DNA of 20,000 bases, taken from positions 56,635 to 76,634 of IMG/VR virus record IMGVR_UViG_3300020557_000008, one strand, 5' to 3'. Source of the stretch: an uncultured virus (IMG/VR IMGVR_UViG_3300020557_000008) (lineage: Duplodnaviria; Heunggongvirae; Uroviricota; Caudoviricetes). Positions 1 to 19,719 of this stretch are shown here, piece after piece (positions within the stretch are counted from its first letter, which is position 1; every line of letters starts with the position of its first letter). Below the pieces are notes generated by a model that did not search any database, was not told where the DNA came from, and was given only the letters and a program-made list of their open reading frames with translations. Position numbers and translations under genes: made by a program.

Positions 1-676
1 AAGAAATGTAAACGTATCTCTCCCCACTCAGGCATGGCCTCACTTCATGTGTGCCAAGGTAGTTTGATGGGAATATGAGCAAATCGCCAGATTTTGGTTG
101 ATGTACAGAATTGGCATATACGAATTCAATTTCTCCACCGCTGTATTCATATTTGCCTAGTTCTTTTTGACTCCCAACGGACGAATTTAAATACAGCAAC
201 ACACTCAATACATGCCTTGTAGCAAGTTGTAAATCCGGCTCAAAACCAACTTGATAATTCACTTCGTTGTCGTTGTGAGTCCCCATGCTGCTGCCTGCGC
301 CATAAGCGGCCACATGGCCAGTTTCCGTCCACCATATATTTGGGAGAACATGCGGGTACATTTCTATGTACATCAAAAGATGTTCATAGATGGTTTTTTC
401 ACATTCATTAAAAAATTCAACCAACTCTTTCGGACTATCTTCGTTGATGAAGTCCATGATGTGACTTGCGCTCTTTTTTATGTCTTCAATTTCGTATCTG
501 TGGCCGCTTCTGTTTATCGCATAAGGCTCTTGTCCATCCTCATGAACAATGGTGTAATCGTCTTTAATTGCCTTCTCTTTGAGCGATGAAAAATATGGAA
601 TAACCAGGTCTTGGTCAACTTCTATAGAATTTGGGAAACAGACAATGCCCATGCCGTAATTTATTGAAGTTTCCAT
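1..676 (-). CDS. 2OG-Fe(II) oxygenase, prolyl-4-hydroxylase-like (3' end runs off the window); paralog of 2506..3537
   Basis: Not in the ORF track because it is open at the window edge. Manual translation from the ATG at 676 gives METSINYGMGIVCFPNSIEVDQDLVIPY...LPNIWWTETGHVAAYGAGSSMGTHNDNEVNY...VLSVLLYLNS...YSGGEIEF...GDLLIFPSNYLGTHEVRPCLSGERYVYIS. The HxD...H...R motif is intact. Confidence 0.88.
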   Translation of the reverse strand, partial: METSINYGMGIVCFPNSIEVDQDLVIPYFSSLKEKAIKDDYTIVHEDGQEPYAINRSGHRYEIEDIKKSASHIMDFINEDSPKELVEFFNECEKTIYEHLLMYIEMYPHVLPNIWWTETGHVAAYGAGSSMGTHNDNEVNYQVGFEPDLQLATRHVLSVLLYLNSSVGSQKELGKYEYSGGEIEFVYANSVHQPKSGDLLIFPSNYLGTHEVRPCLSGERYVYIS

Positions 677-682
677 ACACAA

Positions 683-688
683 ATACTA
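683..688 (-). promoter_or_regulatory. Putative -10 element (TAGTAT) for a leaderless transcript
   Basis: TANNNT hexamer 6 nt upstream of the ATG at 676; no SD. Confidence 0.55.
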
Positions 689-715
689 TATGGGCACAAA
701 CCCACAAGCAAGAAT

Positions 716-1462
716 CTAATTCTTTACAAAAACCGTAACCCCGTAAAATTGCGGAAAATGATACGAGGTTCCCGACAAGCCTTTGAGATTTTCATGGAAC
801 TGGTAATACGGGTGCCAAGTGTATGAGGACGAGTACATATTTGATGCATCGTTTGTTGCGGAAATAACAAGCGTCCCGCCCGGAGCCAAAGCGTTGACCA
901 ACGAATCGAGATACTCCATATCAAACGCCACATCCCAGGATTGAACTGCAATCATTTCAAATTGTTCATCGATTCCAGAAATAAGTTCTGACTTGTCGTA
1001 CACCGAGTACCCAAAGGAGGTGTGCTCGTAAACGTTTTTTAGATTTTTCTCATACATGAAAAGGCCGACATCGTTCACAAAATTTATATTTGCATTTTTG
1101 AAACCGTCAAAAACATTTTCTGGCGCCAAAAGAAAACGAGACACCGAACTGCTAAGTCCCCCAACAAACAGTATTGATGTTGGTTGCTTGGTGCGAATTA
1201 AAAAATCCTCTATTGCCATTTGGGGAATTATCGCGCCAACCCAAAATTCATCAGTCATGTCTTTTGAAACTCGCCACTGCATTGACACGGTGGACAAACC
1301 CACAGCGTTATGGCTCAAGTCAACACTTGCCTCGGCCATCGTGTTCCAGCACTTGGTTGACCAGTCTTCCATGTTTGTTTTAAATTCATTGGAGACCAGC
1401 GACGTGCCAGACGAAGAAAGTTGTGTACTTACCATTCCGGCGAAAAGGACTTCTGGTTTCAT
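716..1462 (-). CDS. Class I SAM-dependent methyltransferase-like protein (divergent)
   Basis: 248 aa. EQFEMIAV...LVNALAPGGTLVIS resembles the FD.I...L.PGG.L motifs of Rossmann methyltransferases. Motif I (ILFVGGLSS) is degenerate. The start overlaps the upstream stop (ATGA). Confidence 0.55.
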   Translation of the reverse strand: MKPEVLFAGMVSTQLSSSGTSLVSNEFKTNMEDWSTKCWNTMAEASVDLSHNAVGLSTVSMQWRVSKDMTDEFWVGAIIPQMAIEDFLIRTKQPTSILFVGGLSSSVSRFLLAPENVFDGFKNANINFVNDVGLFMYEKNLKNVYEHTSFGYSVYDKSELISGIDEQFEMIAVQSWDVAFDMEYLDSLVNALAPGGTLVISATNDASNMYSSSYTWHPYYQFHENLKGLSGTSYHFPQFYGVTVFVKN

Positions 1463-1761
1463 AGTTCTTTCCCGTATTTAGATACTTGCAAATAGAAAAA
1501 AGCATTTCTAAGTTTCGGTATAAAGAAACTGTAATTGCGATAAATAAATGGATACGCTGGGTCTCTTCCAAATCCAGAATCTTTTGTGGAAAAAGTTTCT
1601 CTTAGGGCAGTGATAATTTGACCAATTTCGTAACTTTCAAAGTTGGCAGGGTCGAGACCGGTAACAAAAAGAATTTCAGCGATGTCTTGCCACAAATCCA
1701 CAATATGCTTATCTGCGTCAAAAAGTTTTTCTGCTGAATTGGCAGCACACGACCTTGGCAT
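1459..1761 (-). CDS. Hypothetical protein with helix-G(L/V)D motif
   Basis: 100-aa ORF tightly packed in the operon. IAEILFVTGLDPANFE resembles motifs in 1957..2172 and 2176..2424. Confidence 0.7.
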   Translation of the reverse strand: MPRSCAANSAEKLFDADKHIVDLWQDIAEILFVTGLDPANFESYEIGQIITALRETFSTKDSGFGRDPAYPFIYRNYSFFIPKLRNAFFYLQVSKYGKEL

Positions 1762-1765
1762 ATCT

Positions 1766-1954
1766 TTACTGCTCTTTCGCTAAAAATCGGTCAGTGATAT
1801 CGCAATTCATCATTTGACCGTTTTTAAATTCCCACTGCCTTGTGTCTGGGTTCCATTGAGCAACATTGTTCTCATAATCCTTATACCTCAGCATGCGCGG
1901 CTTTTCTTCCTTTGCCTCATCTAGGTGAAGTGGAACAACTGGCTTTGGAATCAT
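1766..1954 (-). CDS. Hypothetical protein (62 aa)
   Basis: Fills the gap between neighbours exactly, with 2-nt and 4-nt spacers. Confidence 0.65.
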   Translation of the reverse strand: MIPKPVVPLHLDEAKEEKPRMLRYKDYENNVAQWNPDTRQWEFKNGQMMNCDITDRFLAKEQ

Positions 1955-1956
1955 GT

Positions 1957-2172
1957 CTAAGAGTCAGAAATCAAAACGTAATTGGCTACTTGACGCTTCA
2001 GCGATTCATGAGCAGCATATTCCGAATGCCCCTCTGGCAAATCGTGGTCGTATGAATCATCAATTGTCGATACGTCGACGCCAAGCGACATGCACAAGAC
2101 GCCGATTGAGTGCTCAAGAAGTTTTTTTGCTTCTTGTTTTGCCTTGGCAAGTTGCGCTTCTGAGAGGTTCAT
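1957..2172 (-). CDS. Hypothetical small helical protein
   Basis: 71 aa, operon-packed, contains IGVLCMSLGVDVSTID. Confidence 0.72.
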   Translation of the reverse strand: MNLSEAQLAKAKQEAKKLLEHSIGVLCMSLGVDVSTIDDSYDHDLPEGHSEYAAHESLKRQVANYVLISDS

Positions 2173-2175
2173 TGA

Positions 2176-2424
2176 TTACCCAAGTTTTTCTAGACGTGAT
2201 TTGAGGGACGCAATCGTTTCAAGTTTTTTCTTTACGTCCAGTTTCCATTGCTGAACATCTGTCTGGTTCTCGGCGAAAGACTCAGAAAAAGTGGCTTCGT
2301 CAAAGGTGTCAACGTCTACCCCGTAGCGAAGCAGTACGCCAAATACTTCTGTTTCCTGCGCTGCAATTGCCTCTTCCACAAGGCGCTTTTGTGTCGCTAC
2401 GTCAATATTTGTGTTGAGTTTCAT
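2176..2424 (-). CDS. Hypothetical small helical/coiled-coil protein
   Basis: 82 aa with a strong SD (AAGGAGA) just upstream; contains VFGVLLRYGVDVDTFD and has a coiled-coil-like C-terminus. Confidence 0.8.
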   Translation of the reverse strand: MKLNTNIDVATQKRLVEEAIAAQETEVFGVLLRYGVDVDTFDEATFSESFAENQTDVQQWKLDVKKKLETIASLKSRLEKLG

Positions 2425-2463
2425 TGGTCTCCTTTTAGCCGCGTCTTGACCGTTGTTGATTCA

Positions 2464-2472
2464 ATAATAGCA
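2464..2472 (-). promoter_or_regulatory. Putative extended -10 promoter (TGcTATTAT) for the 2424-to-716 operon
   Basis: TGnTANNNT in the intergenic region, about 40 nt upstream of an SD-bearing ATG. Confidence 0.5.
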
Positions 2473-2505
2473 CTGCTACTCAAAAAAAGGCAAAGGTGGC
2501 GACGC

Positions 2506-3537
2506 CTATAGCGACTGAACCTTGCCTCGTTTATTGTTGGCATCAAATACGTCTGAGTGCCTGTACGCCTGCTTCAGGCCATCCTCCCCTTCTAGCGACC
2601 TATTTTGGAAAAGGGGATTTGGCTTACCGCTTAACTCCTCCTCGGATTTACCAAACTCCTCAATGCCACAGTACTTTTTATAATCTTCGTATAATGGCTC
2701 TAACCAATGCGGCTCGCACCACGCCTTTACCGTATCAACGTCGAATACTTCCACGAGCACATTGGGGTCACTGCTTCCTTGAGCGTAAAAAGTTAAATAT
2801 CCGTACCGATTTCCTTCGGTGACAGTGCGAACGCCATGAGTCGCAATGAAATTACATGGAAACACAACTATGTCTCCTGCTTTGGCCTGATACTCAACCC
2901 CCAAATAAGGAAAGAATAATTCGCCGCCTGAATACTGGTTCTCGCCAACCGTTCCCTCATCGACGCAATCGTTGAAATAAGCCATGATTGCAATTGTCTG
3001 ACGTGCACCCAATTGTCCCTTCGGTATGTACTTCTTACCTTTTTCGGCTCTAAAATTTGTGTCGTTGTCATTGTGAACTCCCAAGTAGTTGCCCTTGGAG
3101 TATCTCAAAGCATGCCCTCTAGTCCTCCACCAAAGAGTTGGCAAAACCATTGGAAATTCGTGTATGTATTTCAGTACACATTTATAAATTGAATCTTCCA
3201 GATATCGAAAGAAATCAATCATATTTTGTTCGGTGTTCTCGTTGACAACCTGAAGCACTCTCACCGGCACTTCGTTCATCTGCTCTATGGAGAATTTATT
3301 GCCGTCTTCGTTTACGGCATATTTATTTCCTTCTAGGTCGTAGTCAAATTTCCATCTTTGCTCATGCGCATGCTTCCCTTCTTTGTCAATCCATGGAAGT
3401 AATTGTTCTTGATTTACCTTGAAGGCATTTGGAAATGCGATTACACCGCCACCAAGTTTGACCATGTCCATAGCCATGATTTCCTTGACTGCTTGGTCAT
3501 CAATTGTTGGATAATAACCAAAGTATCTATCGTCCAT
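2506..3537 (-). CDS. 2OG-Fe(II) oxygenase, prolyl-4-hydroxylase-like, with N- and C-terminal extensions
   Basis: 343 aa. LRYSKGNYLGVHNDND...IMAYFND...YSGGELFF...GDIVVFP...THGVRTVTEGNRY gives HxD...H...R. Confidence 0.9.
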   Translation of the reverse strand: MDDRYFGYYPTIDDQAVKEIMAMDMVKLGGGVIAFPNAFKVNQEQLLPWIDKEGKHAHEQRWKFDYDLEGNKYAVNEDGNKFSIEQMNEVPVRVLQVVNENTEQNMIDFFRYLEDSIYKCVLKYIHEFPMVLPTLWWRTRGHALRYSKGNYLGVHNDNDTNFRAEKGKKYIPKGQLGARQTIAIMAYFNDCVDEGTVGENQYSGGELFFPYLGVEYQAKAGDIVVFPCNFIATHGVRTVTEGNRYGYLTFYAQGSSDPNVLVEVFDVDTVKAWCEPHWLEPLYEDYKKYCGIEEFGKSEEELSGKPNPLFQNRSLEGEDGLKQAYRHSDVFDANNKRGKVQSL

Positions 3538-3544
3538 AAGGCAA

Positions 3545-3553
3545 ATTATAACA
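3545..3553 (-). promoter_or_regulatory. Consensus extended -10 promoter (TGTTATAAT), leaderless
   Basis: Perfect TGnTATAAT 7 nt upstream of the ATG at 3537. Confidence 0.7.
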
Positions 3554-4261
3554 TTATTGATTTGGAACAGAAATTACAGGAAGTCCTGTGAATGTTGGCC
3601 CAATAGTATTGCCATCAGCGTCAAGACCTGTCTTTATGCCTTTTGTCCATGTCCATGGACGTTCATTATTGTTGTCGCTCTTTAGTTGTCCATATTTCAT
3701 TCTTTGTTCCATAAGTTCTTTGTCATCCCATAAATTTGATACCGAAACGGTCGCATCCGTCATAACCCTGTTGTCGTATATGTTAAAGAAGCAAATTGGC
3801 TCACCGGCCTTGAATGTGACAGGCGCGCCAATGACATTAATTTTCCAGTTCATTTGAACCTCGTCTGGCCACCAAAATGTAGGAACAGTTGCTGAAAGTG
3901 CCTGTGCGTCACTTCTCAAATAGTTTGGCGAACCAGAAAACCAAGTACTGTAATTTTTTTCTGTTCTCACGACCCAGCCCATTGCAAAAGAAACCATTCC
4001 AATTATTGAGCAGTGGACTTGTGTAAAACCGCTTGATGTTTTTTCGCCAGACAATATTTTGGGGACTGAGTTGCCGCCATCCCACTGGACAACAACATCC
4101 TCACTCAGCACCAGTTCCCAACCTAAAACATTCGCGACAGACATTGGCATGCATTGATAAGCATGCTTTTTGTAGGTCTCATCCATCCAGTCTCGCTTGA
4201 TTCGCGACTGTCTAATTTCTGGCGGGTTTTGTGTCGTTTTTACAAACTGAACATTTGTCAC
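3554..4261 (-). CDS. DUF6065-like protein
   Basis: 235 aa. RDWMD...HAYQCMPMSVANVLGWEL and SGSPNY...MNWKI...FKAGEPICF match the DUF6065 pattern as I recall it. The start overlaps the stop of the upstream oxygenase, implying translational coupling. Confidence 0.7.
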   Translation of the reverse strand: MTNVQFVKTTQNPPEIRQSRIKRDWMDETYKKHAYQCMPMSVANVLGWELVLSEDVVVQWDGGNSVPKILSGEKTSSGFTQVHCSIIGMVSFAMGWVVRTEKNYSTWFSGSPNYLRSDAQALSATVPTFWWPDEVQMNWKINVIGAPVTFKAGEPICFFNIYDNRVMTDATVSVSNLWDDKELMEQRMKYGQLKSDNNNERPWTWTKGIKTGLDADGNTIGPTFTGLPVISVPNQ

Positions 4262-4947
4262 TGTGATGTGCTCACCCCACGTGTTGCCGCAACTGGAGAA
4301 TAAGACTGAACCTGCTTGTGGTTCTTGTCGTTGTAGTCAAACATTGTGACGGCAGAATATTTCACTCCGCTCTGAACTGGAAGTGCTGCGTGAGCGAAAA
4401 TGTATGTCGATGGGAAGAAAACAATGTCTCCTGCTTCTGGCTTGAACTTCAAGTCAAAATATGGGAAGAACAGTTCTCCACCTTCATAATCATCGTTTAG
4501 ATACATGATGGACGATATCGTGCATGTGTAAGAAAATCCGTGGTCGGTGTGAGTTTGAAAGTGTTGTTTTGGTCCGTACTTGACGTAATTAATTGCTTCC
4601 ATCCATTCCATTTTTACGTTGTACATTGACTCATAATGACGCAAGCACGGCGTGAGTCTTTCGATTGTGTCTGACCAAATGGCCTTTATTTCCAAGAACT
4701 CGCCTGGCGCCTGGTTCGCAAGTTGTTCGCTAATTTTGCAGTCAAAACAGTCCCTGTAGTCGGGCATCTTTTCCTGGTGTCCGACAAGGGCCTCCATCCA
4801 CATGTACGGGGGTGTTGTGCTCGTCCCTATCGTCTCCTCCAAGCGCTCTATCAAACGCAGTTCTTTGGGGAGCATATTTCTGTAGACCATAATCGCGAAG
4901 CGAGGGTCTCCAAGATATTCGCACGAAACATTTATGGCTGAGTTCAT
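4258..4947 (-). CDS. 2OG-Fe(II) oxygenase, prolyl-4-hydroxylase-like
   Basis: 229 aa. VKYGPKQHFQTHTD...IMYLNDDYEGGELFF...FPSTYIFAHAALPVQSGVKYS gives HxD...H, with Lys at the 2OG-binding position. SD GAAAGGT. Confidence 0.92.
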   Translation of the reverse strand: MNSAINVSCEYLGDPRFAIMVYRNMLPKELRLIERLEETIGTSTTPPYMWMEALVGHQEKMPDYRDCFDCKISEQLANQAPGEFLEIKAIWSDTIERLTPCLRHYESMYNVKMEWMEAINYVKYGPKQHFQTHTDHGFSYTCTISSIMYLNDDYEGGELFFPYFDLKFKPEAGDIVFFPSTYIFAHAALPVQSGVKYSAVTMFDYNDKNHKQVQSYSPVAATRGVSTSQ

Positions 4948-4996: not shown

Positions 4997-5860
4997 ATGA
5001 GTATAGCGCCTATTTCGGGGGCAATCGAAACCCTGCCATTGTCTATTTACGACATAAAAATCAAGTCAGCCGACGGGAAAAACAGTGACGTTTTGGGTGA
5101 CGCAAGGGGTAAGGTAACCCTGCTTTTCAATGTCGCCGCAGGCTGCGGGAATATTCCTCAACACGGCGTAATTGAGCAACTTCATCAAATGTATAAGGGA
5201 AACCCAGATTTTAAAATTTTGGCTGTGGTTGTTGACGACTTTGTGTGTCACGGATACGAACAGTTCCAGGGCGGACTCGCTTCTTATGCTGAAAAAAATG
5301 CGCTGAGCATGACCCCAGGTCAAATAGCACAGGATTATGCCAAGACCCATTTCGGCTCAACATACGAATTCACTGAGTTGACAAACGGTAGATACGACAA
5401 GCACTCGTACAGCGAAGACTATGTTCCAAATGCTCAAAAGATTCAGGACATTCATGAATTGTGGTTTTATTTGACTGGTTGTCATTCGGCAGATTTTCAA
5501 GAAAACGGAACCCCCTATACTGACGAATTTATTCCTTGGGCAAAAGTAAAGGCGTCAAAGCCAGATGACAAAAGGGGAATGTCCAATTTGACTGGTAATT
5601 TTACAAAGTTTTTGATTGATAGGACAGGAACGCAATATTTGCGCTATCACAATGGATTTCTTCTCGGTGAACGAACACCGCATGGCGAGCCATTCCCTTG
5701 GTGGCAGGGTGAGGGTTTGGAAAAACTCAAACAAGAATTGGGAGAAAAAGAATTTTTTGAGTGGACAAACGCCCCGTATCCAACAAAGTTGCAACAAAAG
5801 GGAATTAACGAATCCCTGAGAATAATCAAAAACGATATCGATTACATGCTCGGGATGTAA
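4997..5860 (+). CDS. Glutathione-peroxidase-like (thioredoxin-fold) protein, atypical active site
   Basis: 287 aa. SIYDIKIKSADG...RGKVTLLFNVAAGCGNIPQH and NFTKFLIDRTG correspond to the GPx signatures NVASxCG and WNFxKFLIDxxG. Confidence 0.8.
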   Translation: MSIAPISGAIETLPLSIYDIKIKSADGKNSDVLGDARGKVTLLFNVAAGCGNIPQHGVIEQLHQMYKGNPDFKILAVVVDDFVCHGYEQFQGGLASYAEKNALSMTPGQIAQDYAKTHFGSTYEFTELTNGRYDKHSYSEDYVPNAQKIQDIHELWFYLTGCHSADFQENGTPYTDEFIPWAKVKASKPDDKRGMSNLTGNFTKFLIDRTGTQYLRYHNGFLLGERTPHGEPFPWWQGEGLEKLKQELGEKEFFEWTNAPYPTKLQQKGINESLRIIKNDIDYMLGM

Positions 5861-6902: not shown

Positions 6903-7466
6903 ATGGGAATAAACCGTGTCGTCGGCCTTGTTTCTCTTGGAGTAATGGGGTCATCGCTTGCGTCATCATTGCTTTCGTCTGGGCATTCGGTTATATGGGC
7001 CTCCCATGGTCGTTCACAAAAAACAATTGACAGGGCTCGCTCTGTGGGCGCCATTGATGTTGGGACAATCAAAGAACTTTCAGACCGTTCTGATGTAATT
7101 ATGTCTGTTGGGTTTGGCAATAGCGGGCCAGAAACCGCAGAACGTTTGATACATGTGGGCTTTGACAAAATTCTTGTTGACTTCAATTCATTGTGGGGAG
7201 AGTCATCAGAGCATTCTTTTTATGAGACTGTGGCGCAAGGTAAGTATGATTACGTTGACGGAGCAATCCATGGATACCCGCTCAACAGTTCTTTTGATAA
7301 AGATGGGTTGACTCGCTTGATGCTCCTGCATGGCGAGCATGCTCAATTTATTGGGTCTCTGTTTACTGATGATATTTGGACAATCATCTACTGTAAAGAA
7401 AAGGCAAAAAAGGAAAATAGGATTATGAGCCAACGACCGTATAGAACGATGGAGTCGTATACCTAA
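6903..7466 (+). CDS. NAD(P)-binding Rossmann protein of the 6-phosphogluconate/3-hydroxyisobutyrate dehydrogenase family, N-terminal domain only
   Basis: 187 aa. VGLVSLGVMGSSLA...GHSVIWAS.GRS..T..RA...SDVIMSV...VDFNS...YVDGAIHG. Overlaps the convergent gene by 44 bp. Confidence 0.72.
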   Translation: MGINRVVGLVSLGVMGSSLASSLLSSGHSVIWASHGRSQKTIDRARSVGAIDVGTIKELSDRSDVIMSVGFGNSGPETAERLIHVGFDKILVDFNSLWGESSEHSFYETVAQGKYDYVDGAIHGYPLNSSFDKDGLTRLMLLHGEHAQFIGSLFTDDIWTIIYCKEKAKKENRIMSQRPYRTMESYT

Positions 7467-8061
7467 ATCCTTTTGTAATCATTGTTACCCCATGCAGATA
7501 ATTGACATCACCGGGGTGCATGACGGCCAAGCCTGGCTTTGGCCTTACCGTGAGGTCGTGTTGTGGATAAAACAAATCTCCGCCTTCAAAATCGTCGTTG
7601 TAATAAAACAGAGAGTTGAGGTCATAGTCAACAAATGCATTTGGTCTTCCGTCATTCAATTGTTTGTCCGCGTGAGGTTTTTGCTCAATTCCAGGACGCC
7701 ATTTCATTATTACGGGAGGGCGTTTGCTGACTTTCACTTTGTAAAAGTCTTCAATCGTTTTCTGCATTTTGTCAATATATTTGTCAACAAGTATCCATAC
7801 CTGTTTGTTGAGCCGTTCTAATATCTCGCTACTGCACTGTCTGTCGTTCCAATAATCTGCGTTATATAAACAAGTTCCATCTTCGGCGTACACGCTTTCA
7901 GCAGAATTGTTCCACTGATTAATGGTTGGGCAAAACTCCTGAATAAGTTTCAAATCTTCCAATTCAATAAAATTGTCAATGACAACAATATTTGATGAAC
8001 TGTTTCCGAAATGTCCCGGCTTGATTTTCCATGGGCTTTCTGCTGTAACGTCCGTGCTCAT
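7423..8061 (-). CDS. 2OG-Fe(II) oxygenase, prolyl-4-hydroxylase-like
   Basis: 212 aa. IVVIDNFI...KWRPGIEQKPHAD...YYNDDFEGGDLFY...YLHGVTMITKGFRYT gives HxD...H...R. Confidence 0.92.
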   Translation of the reverse strand: MSTDVTAESPWKIKPGHFGNSSSNIVVIDNFIELEDLKLIQEFCPTINQWNNSAESVYAEDGTCLYNADYWNDRQCSSEILERLNKQVWILVDKYIDKMQKTIEDFYKVKVSKRPPVIMKWRPGIEQKPHADKQLNDGRPNAFVDYDLNSLFYYNDDFEGGDLFYPQHDLTVRPKPGLAVMHPGDVNYLHGVTMITKGFRYTTPSFYTVVGS

Positions 8062-8067
8062 GTCATA

Positions 8068-8073
8068 ACCCTA
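8068..8073 (-). promoter_or_regulatory. Putative -10 element (TAGGGT), leaderless
   Basis: TANNNT 6 nt upstream of the ATG at 8061. Confidence 0.5.
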
Positions 8074-8107
8074 ACAGCCACTGCATTGGAGTTCTGGATT
8101 TAACTAA

Positions 8108-8599
8108 TCAGCACGGGCCCAATTTTGGATTAAAGCAGGGTGGGAAATATGGCGGGAAGAAAGGTGGGAAGAATGGCGGGAAGAAAGGTGGGAAGAACGG
8201 CGGGAAGTATGGGGGGAAAAAGGGCGGGAAGAACGGTGGGAAAAACGGAGGGAAAAAAGGCGGAAAATACGGAGGAGTTACCGATGGTGATGCCGCTGAA
8301 ACATCTGATGGAACGCCATAATTTGTATTTGCGACAACCGTAAATGTGTAAGAAGTTCCAGAAGTTAAGCCAGATACGGTTATCGGTGAAGATGAGCCAG
8401 TCGCAGTCAAACCGCCAGGGCTTGAGGTCGCCGTATATGTAACTGTTCCCTTGCCAATGTAAGAAGACGGTGTGAAAGCAACGCTTACCTGCTGTGCGTT
8501 GTTCGGGTTTGTGTTATTGACAACGGGAACGACCGTCCCTGTTGGGGACGACGGTGTCGTTGGCTTTTTGCCGCCACTGTCCTTTGGTGCCCTTGCCAT
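8108..8599 (-). CDS. Fibronectin type III domain protein with a C-terminal (PPFF)n repeat tail; likely virion/fibre-associated
   Basis: 163 aa. VSVAFTP...YTATSSPGG...ITVSGLTSGTSYTFTVVANTNYG..S..S is an FN3 signature, followed by 12 PPxF units. Starts 3 nt after the stop of the large fibre gene. Confidence 0.85.
   Translation of the reverse strand: MARAPKDSGGKKPTTPSSPTGTVVPVVNNTNPNNAQQVSVAFTPSSYIGKGTVTYTATSSPGGLTATGSSSPITVSGLTSGTSYTFTVVANTNYGVPSDVSAASPSVTPPYFPPFFPPFFPPFFPPFFPPYFPPFFPPFFPPFFPPFFPPYFPPCFNPKLGPC
8132..8275 (-). repeat. Coding 12-nt tandem repeat x12, encoding (PPYF-(PPFF)4)2-PPYF-PPCF
   Basis: Codons read directly: CCT CCG TAT TTT / CCG CCT TTT TTC / CCT CCG TTT TTC / CCA CCG TTC TTC ... 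CCA CCC TGC TTT. Synonymous positions vary while the peptide is conserved. Confidence 0.97.
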
Positions 8600-8602
8600 A
8601 AA

Positions 8603-11600
8603 TTATGCCGAAATATCTCCTACGAGAACCCACGTATTTTCTGCTCGCTTGATAAGCGTAGCATAGGACCACTGTGCTCGCATCTTCAAGCCTGGTGCTG
8701 CGTTAATTGTTACCCCACCAGTTGCAACAATTGTTGTCTGGCCAGCACCTGTCTGCAAAATGTTGATTTGTGAGCCCACAGGGAAGGCAACGGATGAGTT
8801 CAGTGGAACGGTCAAGTTGTTTGCAGAGGCAACGTTCATTTCTACAATCTTGTTCTTATCCGCAAGGACAAGTGTATAACTGGCTGTTTGAGCGTTTGTT
8901 GAGATGTCTGCCAATTTGCCAAGTTCAATTGCCGCAGTCGCGCTTACATCAGCATTAACAATCACGCCGGAAGAAATCGCCGTAACGCCAGATGAGTCAA
9001 TTGTTATATCGCCGGTTTCCGTTACCCATGTCGGTACACCAGATGCGTTGGCAACAATGATTTGTCCAGCAGTTCCGCTAGATACTGCAATTGAGGCACT
9101 AGAACCCTCTCCTGGCGTGTGCGTAACCGTAATTAGGTTGCCAGCAGCAACGTTCGACATATAGTTACCAGTTGTATCTGTCCCTAGGTCAATTGCGTCA
9201 TTGACCCATGCAGTTCCATTCCATTTCAGGAATTGGCCAGATGTAGCGCTCGTAATTGTTACGTCAGCGATGTCATCGAGGGAATTGATGGTTGTGCCGC
9301 CTGCTGCGTCATTTACCCATGCAGTTCCATTCCATTTTAGAACTTGACCGGCAGATGCAGATGTAATTGATACGTCACCGATGTCATCGAGTGAAGCAAC
9401 CGTTTGCCCATCAACATAAAATGTTGTAGCAATGTCGTAATACGTAGAGCCATCTTCAGTGATTTCCCACTTATCGCTTGTTTCATTCCAGCGGACGGCA
9501 ACGTTTGCCGACGTTCCACGTTCAACTTCAATACCAGCATTCTGTGATGGCGCGCTTGTCTCATTGCTATTGAGAACAATGATGTTGTCAGCGAGATTGA
9601 TTGTCTCCGTATTGACAGTCGTTGTCGTTCCATTGATTGTTAAATCTCCGCCAACAGTGACGTTTCCAGTTGTGGTGATTTGAGCAAATTGAACCGAAGC
9701 GGAAGTGCCAACAGCCTGACCGATTGCAACTGTGGGGCTTGAACCCTCTCCTGGGGTGTGGCTAACGGTTACACCAGTTCCTGCGGTTACATCAGAAACA
9801 TAATTTCCTGTTGTGTCTGTCCCTAGGGCAACTGAGTTAGCCGCGATTGTTGCGTTTATGGTTACATTAGAGGAACCATTAAATGAAGCAGAACCACTCA
9901 GGTCACCGCCCAGAGAGATTGTGCGAGATGTGGCAAGGGCCGTTGCGGTAGACGCATTGCCGATAAGTGGAGCCGTGACTGCCGCAAATGTCACCGATGA
10001 TGAAGTGCCAACAGCCTGACCAATGGCAATCGTCGGGCTTGAGCCTTCGCCAGGAGTATGTGTGACGGTGACACCAGTGCCTGCGGTTACATCAGAAACA
10101 TAGTTTCCTGTTGTGTCGGTGCCAAGAGCAACGCTGTTCGGCTCAACTGCCGCAGTGATTGTTACATCCGATGTTCCGTTAAACGACACCGAACCGCTGA
10201 GGTCTCCACCAAGAGAGATTGTTCGAGCATTCTGAAGAGCGGTCGCCGTTCCAGAATTTCCTGTCACATCGCCTGTTATGTTGCCTGTTACCGGCGCAGA
10301 AACATGTGCAAATGTGACAGACGATGAAGTCCCAACATCTTGGCCAATTGCAATTGTTGCGTTTGAGCCTTCTGCCGGAGTATGTGTAATTGCAACACCC
10401 GTACCAGCAGTGAGGTCAGACATGTAGTTTCCGGTCGTATCTGTTCCGAGCGCAACTGAGTTCGCTGCAATAGTCGCAGTGATTGAAGCATTTGTAGAGC
10501 CATCAAAAGAAACCGAACCAGTTACATCGCCAGAAAGGCTTATCGTCCTTGCGTTTTGCAACGTTGTGGCTGTTGATGCATTACCAACAAGATTTGCGCT
10601 TACAGTATTGAATGTAACCGATGCGCTTGTCGCCACATCTTGACCGATAGACAGTGTGTTTCCCGTCTTCGTAATTCCTGTACCGGCAACAATGTTTGCA
10701 GCACCAGTAAACTGCGTAAAGGTTATTGCGTCAGTACCGATGATGTGAGCACCACCTGTTCCTGTTCCCTCTGAATTGATAATAAAACCTTGGTTGATAT
10801 GCGTTGCGCCGTTTGCAACATAAACAGCATCTCCGCGTACAACTTCATCAAGGTTTCCATCATGGTCAGATGAGCGAGTAAGAATCCATGCTGCAGAAAC
10901 CGAGCCCTGATTTGTTACATCATAAATTCCGTTATGAACACTATTTGCCTGATTCTGCACCAAGACTCTGTCGCCGGTTGTCGCATTTACTCCGTCAATA
11001 ATGAGTCGCGCACTTGCGCTAGCGGTAAGGGTCGCACCAACACCACTTGTTCCATTGTCGTAAGTTGGTGAGTTCGGCAGAACCGCCGCTGTCGCGAGTT
11101 CCACGGAATCGTGCCAGTTGATTCCCGCTGCTATTGAGTCGGCGTACGACTTTGTAACTGCGTGGGTTGTTTCAGTCGGCTGACCAGTGAGTGTAAGGAC
11201 AGCGAATGTTGGCGATGCTGATGTTGCAACACTTTGAGGAATGGATATTGTCGCCGTTGAGCCTTCGCTTGGAGTGTGGCTGATTGTGATTCCTGTTCCA
11301 GCGGTCACATCAACCATGTAGTTGCCGACGGTGTCGGTGCCGAGGTTAATTTGGTCGTTAATCCAGACAGATGATGCGCTGTTCCACATCAAGACATCTT
11401 TGTCAACCTTGCCGTTGGTCTTGACATCATGCAGTTCATTCAGTTCATATCCGTTCTGAACTGCAACATAGATGATTCCGTTGTTTGTTGCACGAACGAC
11501 AACGCCGATGAACACTGTGTTCAGCGGAGCAGAAGGCTTAGTGGTGGTGACACCACCATTTGTTCCAAGCCACAGGATGTCGCCGACGCTGTAGGCAGAA

Positions 11601-14041
11601 AGGTTAATTCCATCGACATATCCGCGTGTGATGACTGGACCGTTTTGGTTCGACGCAACTGCCGTACCCATAACGCCGACAGTCTTGGAAGACGTTGTCT
11701 CCAGCGCATTATCGGCGCGCTTGACCGAAGCATGGTCGCCGTTTCCACCAAAGAGGTATACAACTGTGCCTGATGCAAGTGTCGTTGCTTCCGCATTGCG
11801 GACATACGAGACAACCGGTGTGTATGTCGGAACCCAGCCAGAACCGTCGTAGGCAAGGGCCTGGAATTCTTCTGGTGTCCCAACAACCACATCGTTGAGG
11901 TCGTTCAATGATGCATTCAGGGCAACCGATGCGCTAGAGCCCTCACCGGGTGTATGGGTAACCGTGATAGCAGAGCCAGCAACAATGTCGTTGACGTAAT
12001 TGCCGGTTGTATCGGTACCGAGGGCTACAGAGTTTGGCTGAACCGTTGCGGTAATCGTGACATCAGCAGTTCCGTTGAAGGATGCAGAGCCAGACAAATC
12101 GCCCGAGAGAGAAATTGCGCGCGAAGTCTGCAGCGAGGTTGCTGTGTCAGCATTTCCAGTCAGATTTCCGGTGACATTACCCGTTACGTTCCCCGTTACT
12201 GGCGCAGAGACGTGCGCGAATGTCACAGATGACGATGTTCCGACATCCTGTCCGATTGCTACCGTTGGAGAAGAACCTTCGCCAGGAGTGTGCGTTACAG
12301 TAACGCCCGTTCCAGCGGTCAAATCATTGACATAGTTGCCAGTCGTGTCTGTTCCGAGTTCAATAGCCCCAAGTGCAGCGATGTCACCGTATGTGGTGCC
12401 GTCGTTCGTGAACTCCCATTGGTCGTTTGTTTCGTTCCAGCGAATTAGAACATTTGCTGAAGTTCCGCGCTCAACTTCAATTCCAGCATTTTCTGTTGGT
12501 GAGCCAGTGACATTGCTATTCAGAACAACAATGTTGTCCTCAATCGCCAGTGTCTCTGTGTTTAGGGTGGTTGTGGTTCCGTTTACTGTCAGGTTTCCGC
12601 CAACAGTGATGTCGCCAGTTGTGTCAAGTTTTGCGAAAGTAACCGATGCGCTAGTTGCTACAGACTGACCGATTGCGATTGTTGGGCTTGAGCCCTCTGC
12701 CGGCGTGTGTGTAACGGTTACACCAGTGCCAGCGACAACATCTGAAACATAGTTTCCTACGGTGTCAGTCCCGAGGTTGATTGTGTCGTTTACCCATACG
12801 GTTGAGGCGCTGTTATAGCGCAGGAATTGACCGTCTGTTGGAGATGTCAAAAGAACATCATGCAAATCTTGAATGTGCTCACCTACAGATGGCCTTACAA
12901 GCAAAACGCCAGTTGATGCATTCCTGACAACTAGAGTTGCAACAAGAACCGAATGACGCGGAGCAACGTTTGTCAGTTTGCCAGCGACTGTTGGGTGAAC
13001 ATAGAGAAGGTCTCCAACAGCCCATGTTTCATCGCCAACGCTGATTGCTGTTGAAGAATTTCCTCTTGTGTCAAGTCCTCTTACAAAACCAAAAGTTTGA
13101 ACAAATCCACTGCCGCCATTGGTTATTGATTCAGTTGCAAGTCCAATAAAACTTTCTTCACGGATAGTTCCATCTGCAGTATATGGAAATACTTCAACTT
13201 TTCCGTCTTCCTCTACCCCGGAAGCGTAAAGCGCAGTGCCTTTTTGAATTTGCGAACCAGTTGTGTTGCGAACACGGAATACCGATTCCTCTCCAAGATG
13301 TATGTGTTTATCTGCTGTCAAGCCAAGATTGAGTGTTCCCTCAACAGAATCCCATGTAAGCATTCCAGCAGCAGGTGCCACACTCGCTGTTGTATCAAAC
13401 TGAACGGAATCGATATCTGATAGCGAGTCAACCGTCAAGCCACCAGAGAAAGTGATTGATGTTCCATCACTCGTGATTTCTGCCCCACCAAGATTGATGC
13501 TTGTGCCAGACAAATAGATATCCCTGAATCGCGCCGAAGCAGAGCCAAGGTCGTATGCTTCTGTTGTGCTTGGAATTACATGACCGGCAATATTTGTTTG
13601 ACCATTTACCGTAAGTTGACCAAACGAAACTGATGCGGAAGTGCCCACATCTTGCCCGATTGCAATAGAGGCAGTTGAACCTTCGCCTGGGGTGTGAGTG
13701 ACGGTGACACCAGTGCCGCCAGCCACATCGACCATGTAGTTGCCGACGGTGTCGGTTGAAAGGTTTACGGCGTCGTTAATCCAGACGGAAGCGGAACTGT
13801 CGTAACGCAAAAAATCCCCACCGCTGACGCTGGTGATGGTTACATCACTAAGGTCATTCAGTGAACTAAGGGAAATCGGGATAACCGTATACGAAAGCGA
13901 ATTCCATGCTGTAGTGCCGTCGCCAATTTTGACTTTTTTCGTGTCGGTTTCAAAACCGATTTCACCCGCGTAAAGAACAGGGTTATTGCTTGTCCAAGAT
14001 GAGGCTGTACCGCGCTTGACCTGAATCCTTGCTCCAGCCAT
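8603..14041 (-). CDS. Large mosaic phage fibre protein (1812 aa) with an Mtd_N/hyaluronidase-type N-terminus and many internal repeats
   Basis: The N-terminus RIQVKRGTASSWTSNNPVLYAGEIGFETDTKKVKIGDGTTAWNSLSY is typical of the Mtd N-terminal anchor. The protein is G/T/S/A/V-rich with several repeated modules and ends in a TASYTLVLAD...WVLVGDISA domain. Confidence 0.88.
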   Translation of the reverse strand: MAGARIQVKRGTASSWTSNNPVLYAGEIGFETDTKKVKIGDGTTAWNSLSYTVIPISLSSLNDLSDVTITSVSGGDFLRYDSSASVWINDAVNLSTDTVGNYMVDVAGGTGVTVTHTPGEGSTASIAIGQDVGTSASVSFGQLTVNGQTNIAGHVIPSTTEAYDLGSASARFRDIYLSGTSINLGGAEITSDGTSITFSGGLTVDSLSDIDSVQFDTTASVAPAAGMLTWDSVEGTLNLGLTADKHIHLGEESVFRVRNTTGSQIQKGTALYASGVEEDGKVEVFPYTADGTIREESFIGLATESITNGGSGFVQTFGFVRGLDTRGNSSTAISVGDETWAVGDLLYVHPTVAGKLTNVAPRHSVLVATLVVRNASTGVLLVRPSVGEHIQDLHDVLLTSPTDGQFLRYNSASTVWVNDTINLGTDTVGNYVSDVVAGTGVTVTHTPAEGSSPTIAIGQSVATSASVTFAKLDTTGDITVGGNLTVNGTTTTLNTETLAIEDNIVVLNSNVTGSPTENAGIEVERGTSANVLIRWNETNDQWEFTNDGTTYGDIAALGAIELGTDTTGNYVNDLTAGTGVTVTHTPGEGSSPTVAIGQDVGTSSSVTFAHVSAPVTGNVTGNVTGNLTGNADTATSLQTSRAISLSGDLSGSASFNGTADVTITATVQPNSVALGTDTTGNYVNDIVAGSAITVTHTPGEGSSASVALNASLNDLNDVVVGTPEEFQALAYDGSGWVPTYTPVVSYVRNAEATTLASGTVVYLFGGNGDHASVKRADNALETTSSKTVGVMGTAVASNQNGPVITRGYVDGINLSAYSVGDILWLGTNGGVTTTKPSAPLNTVFIGVVVRATNNGIIYVAVQNGYELNELHDVKTNGKVDKDVLMWNSASSVWINDQINLGTDTVGNYMVDVTAGTGITISHTPSEGSTATISIPQSVATSASPTFAVLTLTGQPTETTHAVTKSYADSIAAGINWHDSVELATAAVLPNSPTYDNGTSGVGATLTASASARLIIDGVNATTGDRVLVQNQANSVHNGIYDVTNQGSVSAAWILTRSSDHDGNLDEVVRGDAVYVANGATHINQGFIINSEGTGTGGAHIIGTDAITFTQFTGAANIVAGTGITKTGNTLSIGQDVATSASVTFNTVSANLVGNASTATTLQNARTISLSGDVTGSVSFDGSTNASITATIAANSVALGTDTTGNYMSDLTAGTGVAITHTPAEGSNATIAIGQDVGTSSSVTFAHVSAPVTGNITGDVTGNSGTATALQNARTISLGGDLSGSVSFNGTSDVTITAAVEPNSVALGTDTTGNYVSDVTAGTGVTVTHTPGEGSSPTIAIGQAVGTSSSVTFAAVTAPLIGNASTATALATSRTISLGGDLSGSASFNGSSNVTINATIAANSVALGTDTTGNYVSDVTAGTGVTVSHTPGEGSSPTVAIGQAVGTSASVQFAQITTTGNVTVGGDLTINGTTTTVNTETINLADNIIVLNSNETSAPSQNAGIEVERGTSANVAVRWNETSDKWEITEDGSTYYDIATTFYVDGQTVASLDDIGDVSITSASAGQVLKWNGTAWVNDAAGGTTINSLDDIADVTITSATSGQFLKWNGTAWVNDAIDLGTDTTGNYMSNVAAGNLITVTHTPGEGSSASIAVSSGTAGQIIVANASGVPTWVTETGDITIDSSGVTAISSGVIVNADVSATAAIELGKLADISTNAQTASYTLVLADKNKIVEMNVASANNLTVPLNSSVAFPVGSQINILQTGAGQTTIVATGGVTINAAPGLKMRAQWSYATLIKRAENTWVLVGDISA
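9701..10120. repeat. Recent ~300-bp internal tandem duplication in the fibre gene
   Basis: 9771-9817 and 10071-10117 differ at 2 of 47 nt. gaagtgccaacagcctgacc occurs at 9702 and 10002. Both offsets are 300 nt (100 aa). Confidence 0.85.
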
Positions 14042-19122: not shown

Positions 19123-19128
19123 ACTCTA
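19123..19128 (-). promoter_or_regulatory. Putative -10 element (TAGAGT), leaderless
   Basis: TANNNT 6 nt upstream of the ATG at 19116; overlaps the TAG stop of the upstream gene. Confidence 0.5.
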
Positions 19129-19656
19129 GCAGGCATCAATAATCAAATGCACACGGTCTATTTTTGAGCCATTTTGCACGCTGTGAAGTTTCCCAGTGTT
19201 GTTTATTTCCCAAATCTCGCCCATGGGGATATGCATCTCTTCGCCATCTACTTCGAACGTGCACTTTTGGTCTGTCGTTACCGGGAGGTGAAATCGTCTT
19301 GTTACTTGCAATAATTCTGTTGCATCCTTATGTCTGCCGATTGATTTGCCCGCTTTTAGAAGCACAAGATTTGCTCTGCGAATATTGCTGTGCTGTCCAA
19401 TGCTAGATAAATAATTTTCTATTTCTTTTAGATGATTTGCAAATGAGTCATAGAACCGCGGGGCTATTTTTCTTGCTTGTGGAAGTTCATTGAACAAGAT
19501 TGGAATCGTCAATGTGTCACGATGGCCAATGATGTTGTCCTGCCTATAGGTAAATGCTTCCCACGATGATGGAGAGAGTGAATTGACTGTGTTTGCTATT
19601 GAAGACGTGTCGTGATATCCAACAAATCTAAAATTGAAATCTTTATCTAATGCCAT
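19126..19656 (-). CDS. Aspartyl/asparaginyl beta-hydroxylase-family 2OG-Fe(II) oxygenase
   Basis: RRANLVLLKAGKSIGRHKD...RFHLPVTT...GEIWEINNTGKLHSVQNGSKIDRVHLIID is a typical signature for this family. Probable start is MALDK at 19656, because the longer start lies inside the terminator. Confidence 0.85.
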   Translation of the reverse strand: MALDKDFNFRFVGYHDTSSIANTVNSLSPSSWEAFTYRQDNIIGHRDTLTIPILFNELPQARKIAPRFYDSFANHLKEIENYLSSIGQHSNIRRANLVLLKAGKSIGRHKDATELLQVTRRFHLPVTTDQKCTFEVDGEEMHIPMGEIWEINNTGKLHSVQNGSKIDRVHLIIDAC

Positions 19657-19664
19657 ATGTCCAT

Positions 19665-19719
19665 AAAAGCCGAAGCCCCCGCCTTTGTCCATTGCTGGAC
19701 TCGGGCGGGGGCAACGACT
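19665..19719 (-). terminator. Intrinsic terminator-like hairpin after the major capsid gene
   Basis: Minus strand: agtcg-tt-GCCCCCGCC-cga-GTCCA-gcaa-TGGAC-aaa-GGCGGGGGC-tt-cggct-tttat. This is a long GC-rich stem with a GCAA tetraloop and a short U tract. Confidence 0.8.

Follow-up and report, generated by a model that had tools for sequence, protein, structure and literature searches.

A proline-aromatic repeat rod on a putative fibre-tip protein of an uncultured tailed phage, encoded next to a predicted prolyl-hydroxylase-type oxygenase

The fibre tip of T-even phages is a two-part assembly of gp37 and the gp38 adhesin. Plant extensins and other hydroxyproline-rich glycoproteins are built from Tyr-containing, Pro-rich repeats with Ser-Pro(3-5), YxY and VYK motifs, which are hydroxylated by prolyl 4-hydroxylases (P4Hs) and then glycosylated, and the virus PBCV-1 has repeats of the (Pro-Ala-Pro-Lys) type. 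PBCV-1 encodes a P4H along with its own Pro-rich repeat proteins (Eriksson et al. 1999, as cited in PMC9301287), and the use of the viral P4H "remains cryptic" according to the available text of PMC9301287. Collagen-like and further Pro-rich stalks occur in phage fibre proteins (PMC3368898, available portion), and cyanophage Syn9 carries ten dioxygenases in tandem (Iyer et al. 2010, PMC2938197, available portion). The accessible parts of these and related sources propose roles for such phage arrays in 2-oxoglutarate (2OG)/nitrogen physiology or DNA repair (Sullivan et al. 2010, PMC3037559) or in secondary metabolism (PMC2938197), and bacterial collagen-like and tail-collar proteins have been put forward as substrates of co-encoded hydroxylases (PMC2938197). 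Here we analyse a 20,000-nt stretch (the window) of an uncultured Caudoviricetes virus, positions 56,635 to 76,634 of IMG/VR record IMGVR_UViG_3300020557_000008, in which a gene for a 163-aa protein ending in a proline-aromatic repeat array lies between a large fibre gene and a gene for a 2OG/Fe(II) oxygenase.

We find it reasonably probable that this locus encodes the distal subunit of a two-part fibre, furnished with a rod, together with a neighbouring prolyl-hydroxylase-like enzyme. That the 163-aa protein is a structural fibre-tip protein with a stalk-like rod is likely; that the rod is a substrate of the neighbouring oxygenase or oxygenases is plausible, if slightly short of an even chance. 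The protein is laid out as follows.

8108..8599, minus strand: gene for the 163-aa putative fibre-tip protein (open reading frame (ORF) list, translation)
8543..8599, minus strand: N-terminal leader, residues 1-19, with a conserved DSGGKKP-type motif (alignment, AlphaFold2)
8276..8542, minus strand: fibronectin type III (fn3) beta-sandwich domain, residues about 20-108 (Pfam, AlphaFold2, BFVD)
8132..8275, minus strand: array of twelve PPxF units, x = YFFFFYFFFFYC, residues 109-156 (translation, Tandem Repeats Finder)
8108..8131, minus strand: C-terminal NPKLGPC (8131..8111) and TGA stop (8110..8108) (translation)

Translation reproduces the tail that an initial annotation of this DNA had read as PPYF(PPFF)4 PPYF(PPFF)4 PPYF PPCF NPKLGPC, and the range assigned to it, 8108-8275, is exact, opening with the first repeat codon and closing with the stop. 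Through the twelve units x takes the order Y F F F F Y F F F F Y C; none of the rod residues is charged, and its polar groups are limited to the three Tyr hydroxyls. The protein contains exactly two Cys, C155 in the last repeat unit and C163 as the last residue, with the seven-residue loop between them that had been noted, and the pair may form a C155-C163 disulfide. The fn3 family PF00041 scores just under its cut-off here (E 4.5e-5, 24.0 bits, cut-off 25), and several relatives exceed it. AlphaFold2, run with a 29-sequence alignment, gives a confident beta-sandwich over residues about 11-110 (six strands detected; predicted local distance difference test score, pLDDT, 83-95), and the model and its BFVD matches agree with the seven-strand beta-sandwich expected of an fn3 fold; the best of these matches are unannotated fn3 proteins from uncultured Caudovirales phages, at up to 60% identity. 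In the leader, G10 is invariant and P16 nearly invariant in the alignment of relatives, and mean pLDDT at residues 11-20 is 89; this segment may serve for attachment. The protein belongs to no PHROGs family, and a Pfam scan finds no Peptidase_S74 domain in it. A collagen-like triple helix was rejected because Gly does not stand at every third residue: the 48-residue array has no Gly, and its period is 4 residues rather than Gly-X-Y. A 67-aa Gly/Lys/Arg-rich ORF on the plus strand (window 8140-8343) is an antisense reading of the repeat and was dismissed as a gene, being a repeat artefact.

The protein belongs to a large family, well represented in uncultured phages. A word-seeded protein search returned 681 proteins at E <= 0.01 among 3651 candidates, and 389 related viral loci were confirmed in IMG/VR, the best 80 of which were retained. 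At 44 of the 80 loci an aromatic-proline array follows one to four fn3 domains, and these arrays mostly end in ...PPxFK, with others continuing into Cys-rich tips. The remaining 36 loci share the leader and fn3 domain and carry other C-terminal domains (Gly_rich_2, Lcl_C, DUF7483 and others). Fibre and adhesin proteins are usually built in this way, with a constant head and an exchangeable distal end. The chaperone domain Peptidase_S74, a mark of trimeric fibres, caps the array in two relatives (P0067, 1.4e-10; L079, 3.8e-12).

A second search, with residues 100-163 against longer proteins only, gave 54 proteins of 287-2000 aa. In several of these (P0136, P0143, P0147 and others) PP[F/Y/H]F arrays lie between large N-terminal parts and terminal fn3-like domains, elsewhere they precede Cys tips (P0122, P0140) or Gly runs, and they serve as internal linkers inside proteins of 1000-1480 aa. 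Hint-like self-cleaving domains follow some arrays, identified in P0135 by a precomputed PF07591 annotation and in others by eye, and Hint-like or Peptidase_S74 caps stand on many arrays (P0135, P0134, P0144, P0169, P0172-P0174, P0051, P0067, L079); with a self-cleaving cap, the mature protein would end at the array, like the natural ...PPxFK ends. By its distribution the array is thus a general stalk/linker module of phage structural proteins. The suggestion that the rod presents a tip fits the family, in that PPxF and (V/T)TPP arrays precede Cys-rich tips in many relatives, and in L069 and P0004 the tip begins with the same PPCF-type junction; the Cys pair itself is not conserved, most close relatives ending in ...PPxFK without Cys. 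One 239-aa relative (P0006) has two PPYF units and then the repeat in another frame (SFLHSFHPSSRHSS...), either a frameshifted copy or an assembly error.

Codon usage and divergence within the array show what has been maintained. Over the 48 repeat residues Pro is encoded by CCA 7, CCC 3, CCG 9 and CCT 5 times, Phe by TTC 15 and TTT 5 times, and Tyr by TAT 2 times and TAC once, so that none of the four Pro codons and neither Phe codon is left unused, as had been observed. Of 66 pairs of units a single one has the same DNA sequence, units agree at 0.25-0.60 of their third positions, and Tandem Repeats Finder detects repeats with periods of 12, 24 and 36 nt and matches of 79-83%; units 7-10, with a local 24-nt periodicity, are the exception to this pattern of diverged units. 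The proportions of synonymous (pS) and nonsynonymous (pN) differences are 0.85 and 0.047 within the array, and the medians against 26 other arrays from related loci are 0.79 and 0.046. Because synonymous sites are saturated while nonsynonymous change is about 5%, with the tetrapeptide nearly constant, selection acts on the peptide, and with pS near 0.8 against pN near 0.05 the initial conclusion of selection rather than recent slippage is sound. The coding strand of the array is 86% pyrimidine, with 20 purines in its 144 nt. Its preference for TTC over TTT (15:5) is opposite to that of six of the genome's long ORFs, which favour TTT (141:77), and may avoid long T runs. Among the papers listed in literature searches for PPFF-type motifs, the matches were unrelated acronyms, with no description of PPxF arrays; the rod is a real, selected and apparently undescribed structural module on a putative fibre-tip protein.

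The 20-residue recurrence of Tyr, also drawn from the initial annotation, stands in part. Of the 165 ways to place three Tyr among 11 units, 25 (15%) give even spacing, as do 5 of 45 (11%) if the first unit is fixed as Tyr, and among 47 distinct arrays of the nearest relatives the five-unit spacing occurs in no other. These relatives show instead YFF triplets with a 12-residue period (L005, L006, L038, L032, P0001, P0011), arrays that begin rich in Tyr and go over into runs of Phe, or arrays such as L058 that have Tyr almost throughout. A recent 60-nt duplication as the source of the period was rejected, third-position identity being 0.32 at a lag of 60 nt against 0.60 at a lag of 24, without any 60-nt periodicity in the DNA. 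We then find the period again in a wider set of 59 distinct arrays, each with 10 or more units, distant proteins included, of which 50 were testable for Tyr/His spacing and many are interrelated, so that the counts are not independent. The best-fitting lag is 3 units in 18 of the 50 arrays (six with z >= 3) and 5 units in 19 (six with z >= 3; z = 2.8 for the 163-aa protein), and lags of 2, 4 and 6 are best in 7, 5 and 1 arrays, none with z >= 3. Super-periods of 12 and 20 residues are the two preferred patterns of this array family and may reflect rod geometry or block duplication, and since 3- and 5-unit lags dominate the wider family, the 20-residue period is a genuine recurring pattern, absent from the closest relatives and statistically weak in this one protein.

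These same features bear on two uses of the repeat raised earlier, as a multi-core precursor of released or cyclic PPFF peptides or as an extensin-like scaffold cross-linked through Tyr. The regularity of the repeat and its recurring Tyr speak for them, as do radical-SAM/SPASM and DUF6171 genes near relatives with Cys tips (L030) and the PPFF motif that the initial annotation ascribes to antamanide and cyclolinopeptide A. The units, however, abut without spacer or recognition sequences, and no protease, macrocyclase or haem peroxidase is found in Pfam and PHROGs scans of 19 window ORFs or in Pfam scans of 225 neighbours in related loci. Tyr is exchanged for His or Phe in relatives, some of which have no polar residue at the position, and SPPPP and YxY motifs are absent. 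A dedicated peptide precursor is ruled out by the use of the array as a general stalk or linker in structural proteins, including the internal linkers of very long ones, and neither proposal is borne out for a protein with an fn3 domain in a structural operon; taken together, we regard them as very improbable.

The position of the gene supports its assignment to a fibre; neither this context nor the adjacent oxygenase gene features in the initial annotation. The gene lies in a block with head-tail adaptor, Neck1, tail terminator and fibre genes, identified by Pfam and PHROGs scans of the window ORFs, in a siphovirus genome with genes for a tape measure, for Dit and for a Tal-like protein. Directly upstream is the fibre gene itself.

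8603..14041, minus strand: 1812-aa repeat-rich tail fibre with an Mtd_N N-terminus (PF18454 1.3e-15; tail/tail-fibre PHROGs)
8606..8995, minus strand: C-terminal 'knob' of the fibre, last 130 aa, proposed docking site of the tip (homologous domains upstream in relatives)

A gap of 3 nt separates the fibre stop from the ATG of the 163-aa protein. In 43 of 65 distinct loci (27/33 repeat-bearing, 4/5 other Pro-rich and 12/27 other loci) the fn3-family gene is immediately preceded by a gene that ends in a homologue of the knob; the upstream proteins range from 128 to 1355 aa as compared with 1812 aa in the window. The knob homologue also ends the gene just before PASTA-headed repeat proteins (L093-L099). 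The tip gene thus adjoins a conserved fibre C-terminal domain, and because the knob recurs directly upstream of the fn3-family gene, the arrangement suggests a two-part fibre of knob and separate tip protein, in which the tip protein would dock on the knob. The same position after the fibre gene and the same pairing with the knob would also fit a phage fibre chaperone, so that the gene could equally encode a Tfa-type assembly chaperone or adaptor for the knob which is no lasting part of the virion, with the rod as a flexible spacer. Relatives with the same head bear Lcl_C, Gly_rich_2, DUF7483, Cys-rich tips and Peptidase_S74 caps, all typical of exposed fibre ends rather than of chaperones, and a transient chaperone is on this evidence improbable.

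On the other side of the 163-aa gene lies the candidate modifying enzyme.

7423..8061, minus strand: 212-aa 2OG/Fe(II) oxygenase, prolyl-hydroxylase type (phrog_61, PDB sequence search, AlphaFold2, Foldseek)

The oxygenase gene starts 46 nt downstream of the 163-aa gene on the same strand, no minus-strand terminator is predicted between the two, and they are probably co-transcribed. The enzyme matches phrog_61 (6.4e-18) and, below the cut-off of 27, PF13640 (1.3e-3, 20.1 bits), and the top entry in a PDB sequence search is the Bacillus anthracis P4H (2.7e-4). H130, D132, H190 and R200, the HxD...H triad and the basic 2OG-binding residue, are invariant in 19 orthologues. In the AlphaFold2 model (pLDDT 94) the protein adopts a double-stranded beta-helix that lies nearest to peptidyl prolyl hydroxylases: the top Foldseek match is the viral collagen prolyl hydroxylase vCPH of PBCV-1 (5c5t, 1.4e-9), followed by human P3H1, B. 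anthracis P4H, PiuC, PHD2, LH3, Chlamydomonas P4H and human C-P4H-II (top entries 5c5t, 8k0m, 3itq, PHD2, LH3, 2jig and 7zsc; E 1e-9 to 5e-8, TM 0.5-0.66). By its modelled fold the 212-aa protein falls in the protein-hydroxylase branch.

We then find that oxygenases of this kind accompany proline repeats well beyond the window. In 29 PPxF loci the repeat gene is followed, at a distance of 6-3255 nt, by an orthologue of the 212-aa enzyme that scores at least 280 bits. If distinct loci are scored for a gene related to one or more of three oxygenases from the window, up to 4 kb downstream, the counts are as follows.

Repeat-bearing (aromatic-proline array) loci with an oxygenase relative within 4 kb: 30/33 (the three misses have <2 kb of downstream flank)
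Other Pro-rich loci with an oxygenase relative within 4 kb: 4/5
Loci without a Pro repeat, with an oxygenase relative within 4 kb: 2/27 (12 of the 25 misses have <4 kb of flank)

Fisher's test gives p 2e-11, uncorrected and with kinship ignored, and Pfam scans of the neighbouring genes agree with these counts. Partly independent of these counts, a second structural protein of the same genome repeats the theme with another repeat chemistry: the 1186-aa Tal-like protein, encoded outside the window (G000:C1:32500-38304; L084:7500-13304), ends in a (V/T)TPP-type array, (TPPV)11, and a small Cys-rich tip, and its gene is followed by ORFs of 66 and 136 aa, then by DUF6171 and by a PF13640 oxygenase of 451 aa. 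This DUF6171/oxygenase cassette recurs behind differently built proteins, fn3-(VTPP)15-Cys in L008 and PASTA-(VTPP)n-Cys in L099. Likewise partly independent, viral records with other PPxF architectures contain PF13640 in 5 of 5 cases (1 to 10 copies), as compared with 1 of 10 control records of relatives without Pro repeats.

From these elements we propose the following course of events. The small protein would be made together with the fibre, and its leader and fn3 domain would dock onto the C-terminal knob of the 1812-aa fibre, so that the 48-residue rod, stiff, extended and very hydrophobic, projects outward, presumably in a polyproline-II type conformation. The adjacent P4H-like oxygenase may hydroxylate rod prolines, which, to go by what is known of hydroxyproline (Hyp), would stabilise polyproline-II and leave the rod stiffer and soluble. 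Once released into oxic water, the two Cys could close a 9-residue ring, perhaps a minimal version of the Cys-rich tips of relatives.

Several observations weigh against this reading. The rod has no secondary structure in the AlphaFold2 monomer (pLDDT 48-64), and known P4Hs act on X-Pro-Gly or poly-Pro-like sequences, while the rod prolines are flanked by Phe. The 76.6-kb record contains at least eight PF13640-type genes, so that chance alone would not seldom put an oxygenase beside the repeat gene. The repeat-bearing loci stem for the most part from phages that are related and keep their gene order, their orthologues of the enzyme are 57-75% identical, and the association was counted without regard to phylogeny. 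The control records without Pro repeats are mostly short fragments. At 12 loci of two other PPxF architectures (L086-L097) a phmmer search finds no oxygenase within 10 kb, and the whole records behind these loci do contain oxygenases.

Some of this would suit an unmodified structural fibre or linker protein, next to which oxygenases occur merely because related phages maintain a variable enzyme island behind the fibre module. The targets of these enzymes would then lie elsewhere, among small molecules, nucleic acids, host proteins or further virion proteins such as the giant fibre. The PPxF proteins of L086-L097 and the neglect of phylogeny count in its favour, as do the roles published for dioxygenase arrays in the available text of PMC3037559 and PMC2938197, namely 2OG/nitrogen physiology, DNA repair and secondary metabolites. 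So does the mixed content of the island, which also holds a GSHPx-like gene, an NAD-binding gene and a DUF6065 gene, with sulfotransferases in relatives.

2..4947, minus strand: further tailoring-enzyme island (Pfam)
2-682, minus strand: 2OG oxygenase (PF13640 1.7e-10)
2506-3537, minus strand: 2OG oxygenase (PF13640 4.1e-8)
3554-4261, minus strand: DUF6065 gene (PF19541 3.3e-43)
4258-4947, minus strand: 2OG oxygenase (PF13640 5e-13)
19126-19692, minus strand: Asp/Arg beta-hydroxylase-type gene upstream of the head-tail connector genes (PF05118 2.8e-13)

Against an unmodified rod, the closest structures of the enzymes are peptidyl-proline and peptidyl-lysine hydroxylases, proteins of three architectures, with repeats of two chemistries (PPxF and (V/T)TPP), show the pairing, and fn3-family loci without Pro repeats, even those sharing the knob gene, hardly ever have oxygenases, as the counts above show. 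We consider an unmodified rod unlikely, though it deserves to be weighed seriously beside hydroxylation by the adjacent enzyme. The Asp/Arg beta-hydroxylase-type gene is, from its family assignment, another protein-hydroxylase candidate in the structural region.

A wider form of the hydroxylation reading can be offered tentatively. Tailed phages of lakes and seas may use banks of 2OG oxygenases to hydroxylate PPxF and (V/T)TPP fibre-tip rods, which some lineages would then glycosylate or sulfate; the result would be a hydroxyproline stalk of neither collagen nor extensin type, whose 12- and 20-residue Tyr/His spacing would follow the helical geometry of the rod.

Other genes recur around these loci. 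PF11397 'GlcNAc' glycosyltransferase genes stand between the repeat protein and the PF13640 oxygenase in two relatives (L032:2149-3099, 3.8e-25; L045:1437-2417, 4.7e-22); PF11397 is taken to include the Skp1 hydroxyproline GlcNAc transferase, and genes of that kind would be in keeping with a glycosylation of Hyp. In some phages, sulfotransferase and APS-kinase-like genes are found beside fn3-family fibre genes (L063:6733-8332, L060:7319-8562, L044:1863-2651) and recall the hydroxylation-then-sulfation proposal for bacterial collagen-like proteins in the accessible part of PMC2938197. DUF6171 genes, small and Cys-containing, occur alongside Cys-tipped proteins (L024, L032, L045, L055, L008, L030, L067, L093, L099), and in L030 the gene is followed by a radical-SAM/SPASM enzyme, a position that hints at modification of Cys tips. 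A glutathione-peroxidase-like (thioredoxin-fold) gene at window 4997-5860 on the plus strand lies in the enzyme island, and such genes recur in L005, L006, L020, L026, L038 and L049, in some directly after the repeat gene.

The source record is a 76.6-kb contig with an estimated completeness of 57%. The stretch is contained in 19 freshwater/lake DNA runs from 2016, 2020 and 2024; among 24 runs listed, none was an RNA run containing it, and a raw-read run of 2026 gave no reads over it. Lake contigs from three runs (2016, 2020, 2024) show zero differences over positions 7900-8700, an identity that is no independent support because the contigs may be the record's own source. A tblastn search of the 163-aa protein against 50,697 phage records, with the low-complexity filter on, gave no match, and in a blastn search of window 7400-9400 against the same cultured phages the sole match was a short piece of fibre repeat in Synechococcus phage S-H38; at the level of sequence, these searches imply little beyond the lack of a close cultured relative.

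Set beside the described systems, the locus shares its gene layout with gp37/gp38: in both, the fibre gene is immediately followed by a small gene whose product is paired with a conserved C-terminal domain of the fibre and varies at its distal end. The head here, however, is fn3 or PASTA and not gp38-like, and the likeness comes from gene layout alone. With the collagen-like stalks of phage fibres (PMC3368898, available portion) it has in common a repetitive, Pro-rich stalk segment in a fibre protein; the unit here is a tetrapeptide with two aromatics and has no Gly at third positions. Extensins resemble it in their Pro-rich Tyr repeats, and at two related loci (L032, L045) in the presence of a PF11397 GlcNAc-transferase-family gene, but the 163-aa protein is without Ser-Pro(3-5), YxY, signal peptide or secretory route, and each of its Tyr is isolated. 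The PPFF tetrapeptide named for antamanide and cyclolinopeptide A belongs to small cyclic peptides of fungi and plants, whereas here there is no sign of cleavage or cyclisation, and the resemblance is best read as coincidence.

Among viruses, PBCV-1 likewise has both a P4H-type enzyme and Pro-rich tandem repeats, and its vCPH is the top structural match of the oxygenase. PBCV-1 is a eukaryotic algal virus, while the present case is a tailed phage in which an aromatic PPFF/PPYF repeat and the enzyme are encoded by adjacent genes as a candidate enzyme-substrate pair; none of the papers listed in our literature searches on prolyl hydroxylases of phages and on tail fibres connects the two in tailed phages. 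The many clustered 2OG/Fe(II) oxygenase paralogues in one aquatic phage genome, here at least eight PF13640-type genes plus one of the Asp/Arg-hydroxylase type, recall the cyanophage arrays, for which the published roles (nitrogen/2OG physiology, DNA repair, secondary metabolites) all come without substrates in the available text of PMC3037559 and PMC2938197. Here, in distinction, the arrays come directly after fibre proteins with Pro repeats, a position that speaks for virion proteins being tailored. The PPxF array is a widespread module of Pro and aromatic residues under strong purifying selection, relevant to fibre mechanics, adsorption and peptide materials, and the 163-aa protein with its 48-residue PPxF rod and the 212-aa enzyme 46 nt away form a concrete, expressible pair, with which the substrate question left by the cyanophage arrays becomes a simple co-expression and mass-spectrometry experiment.

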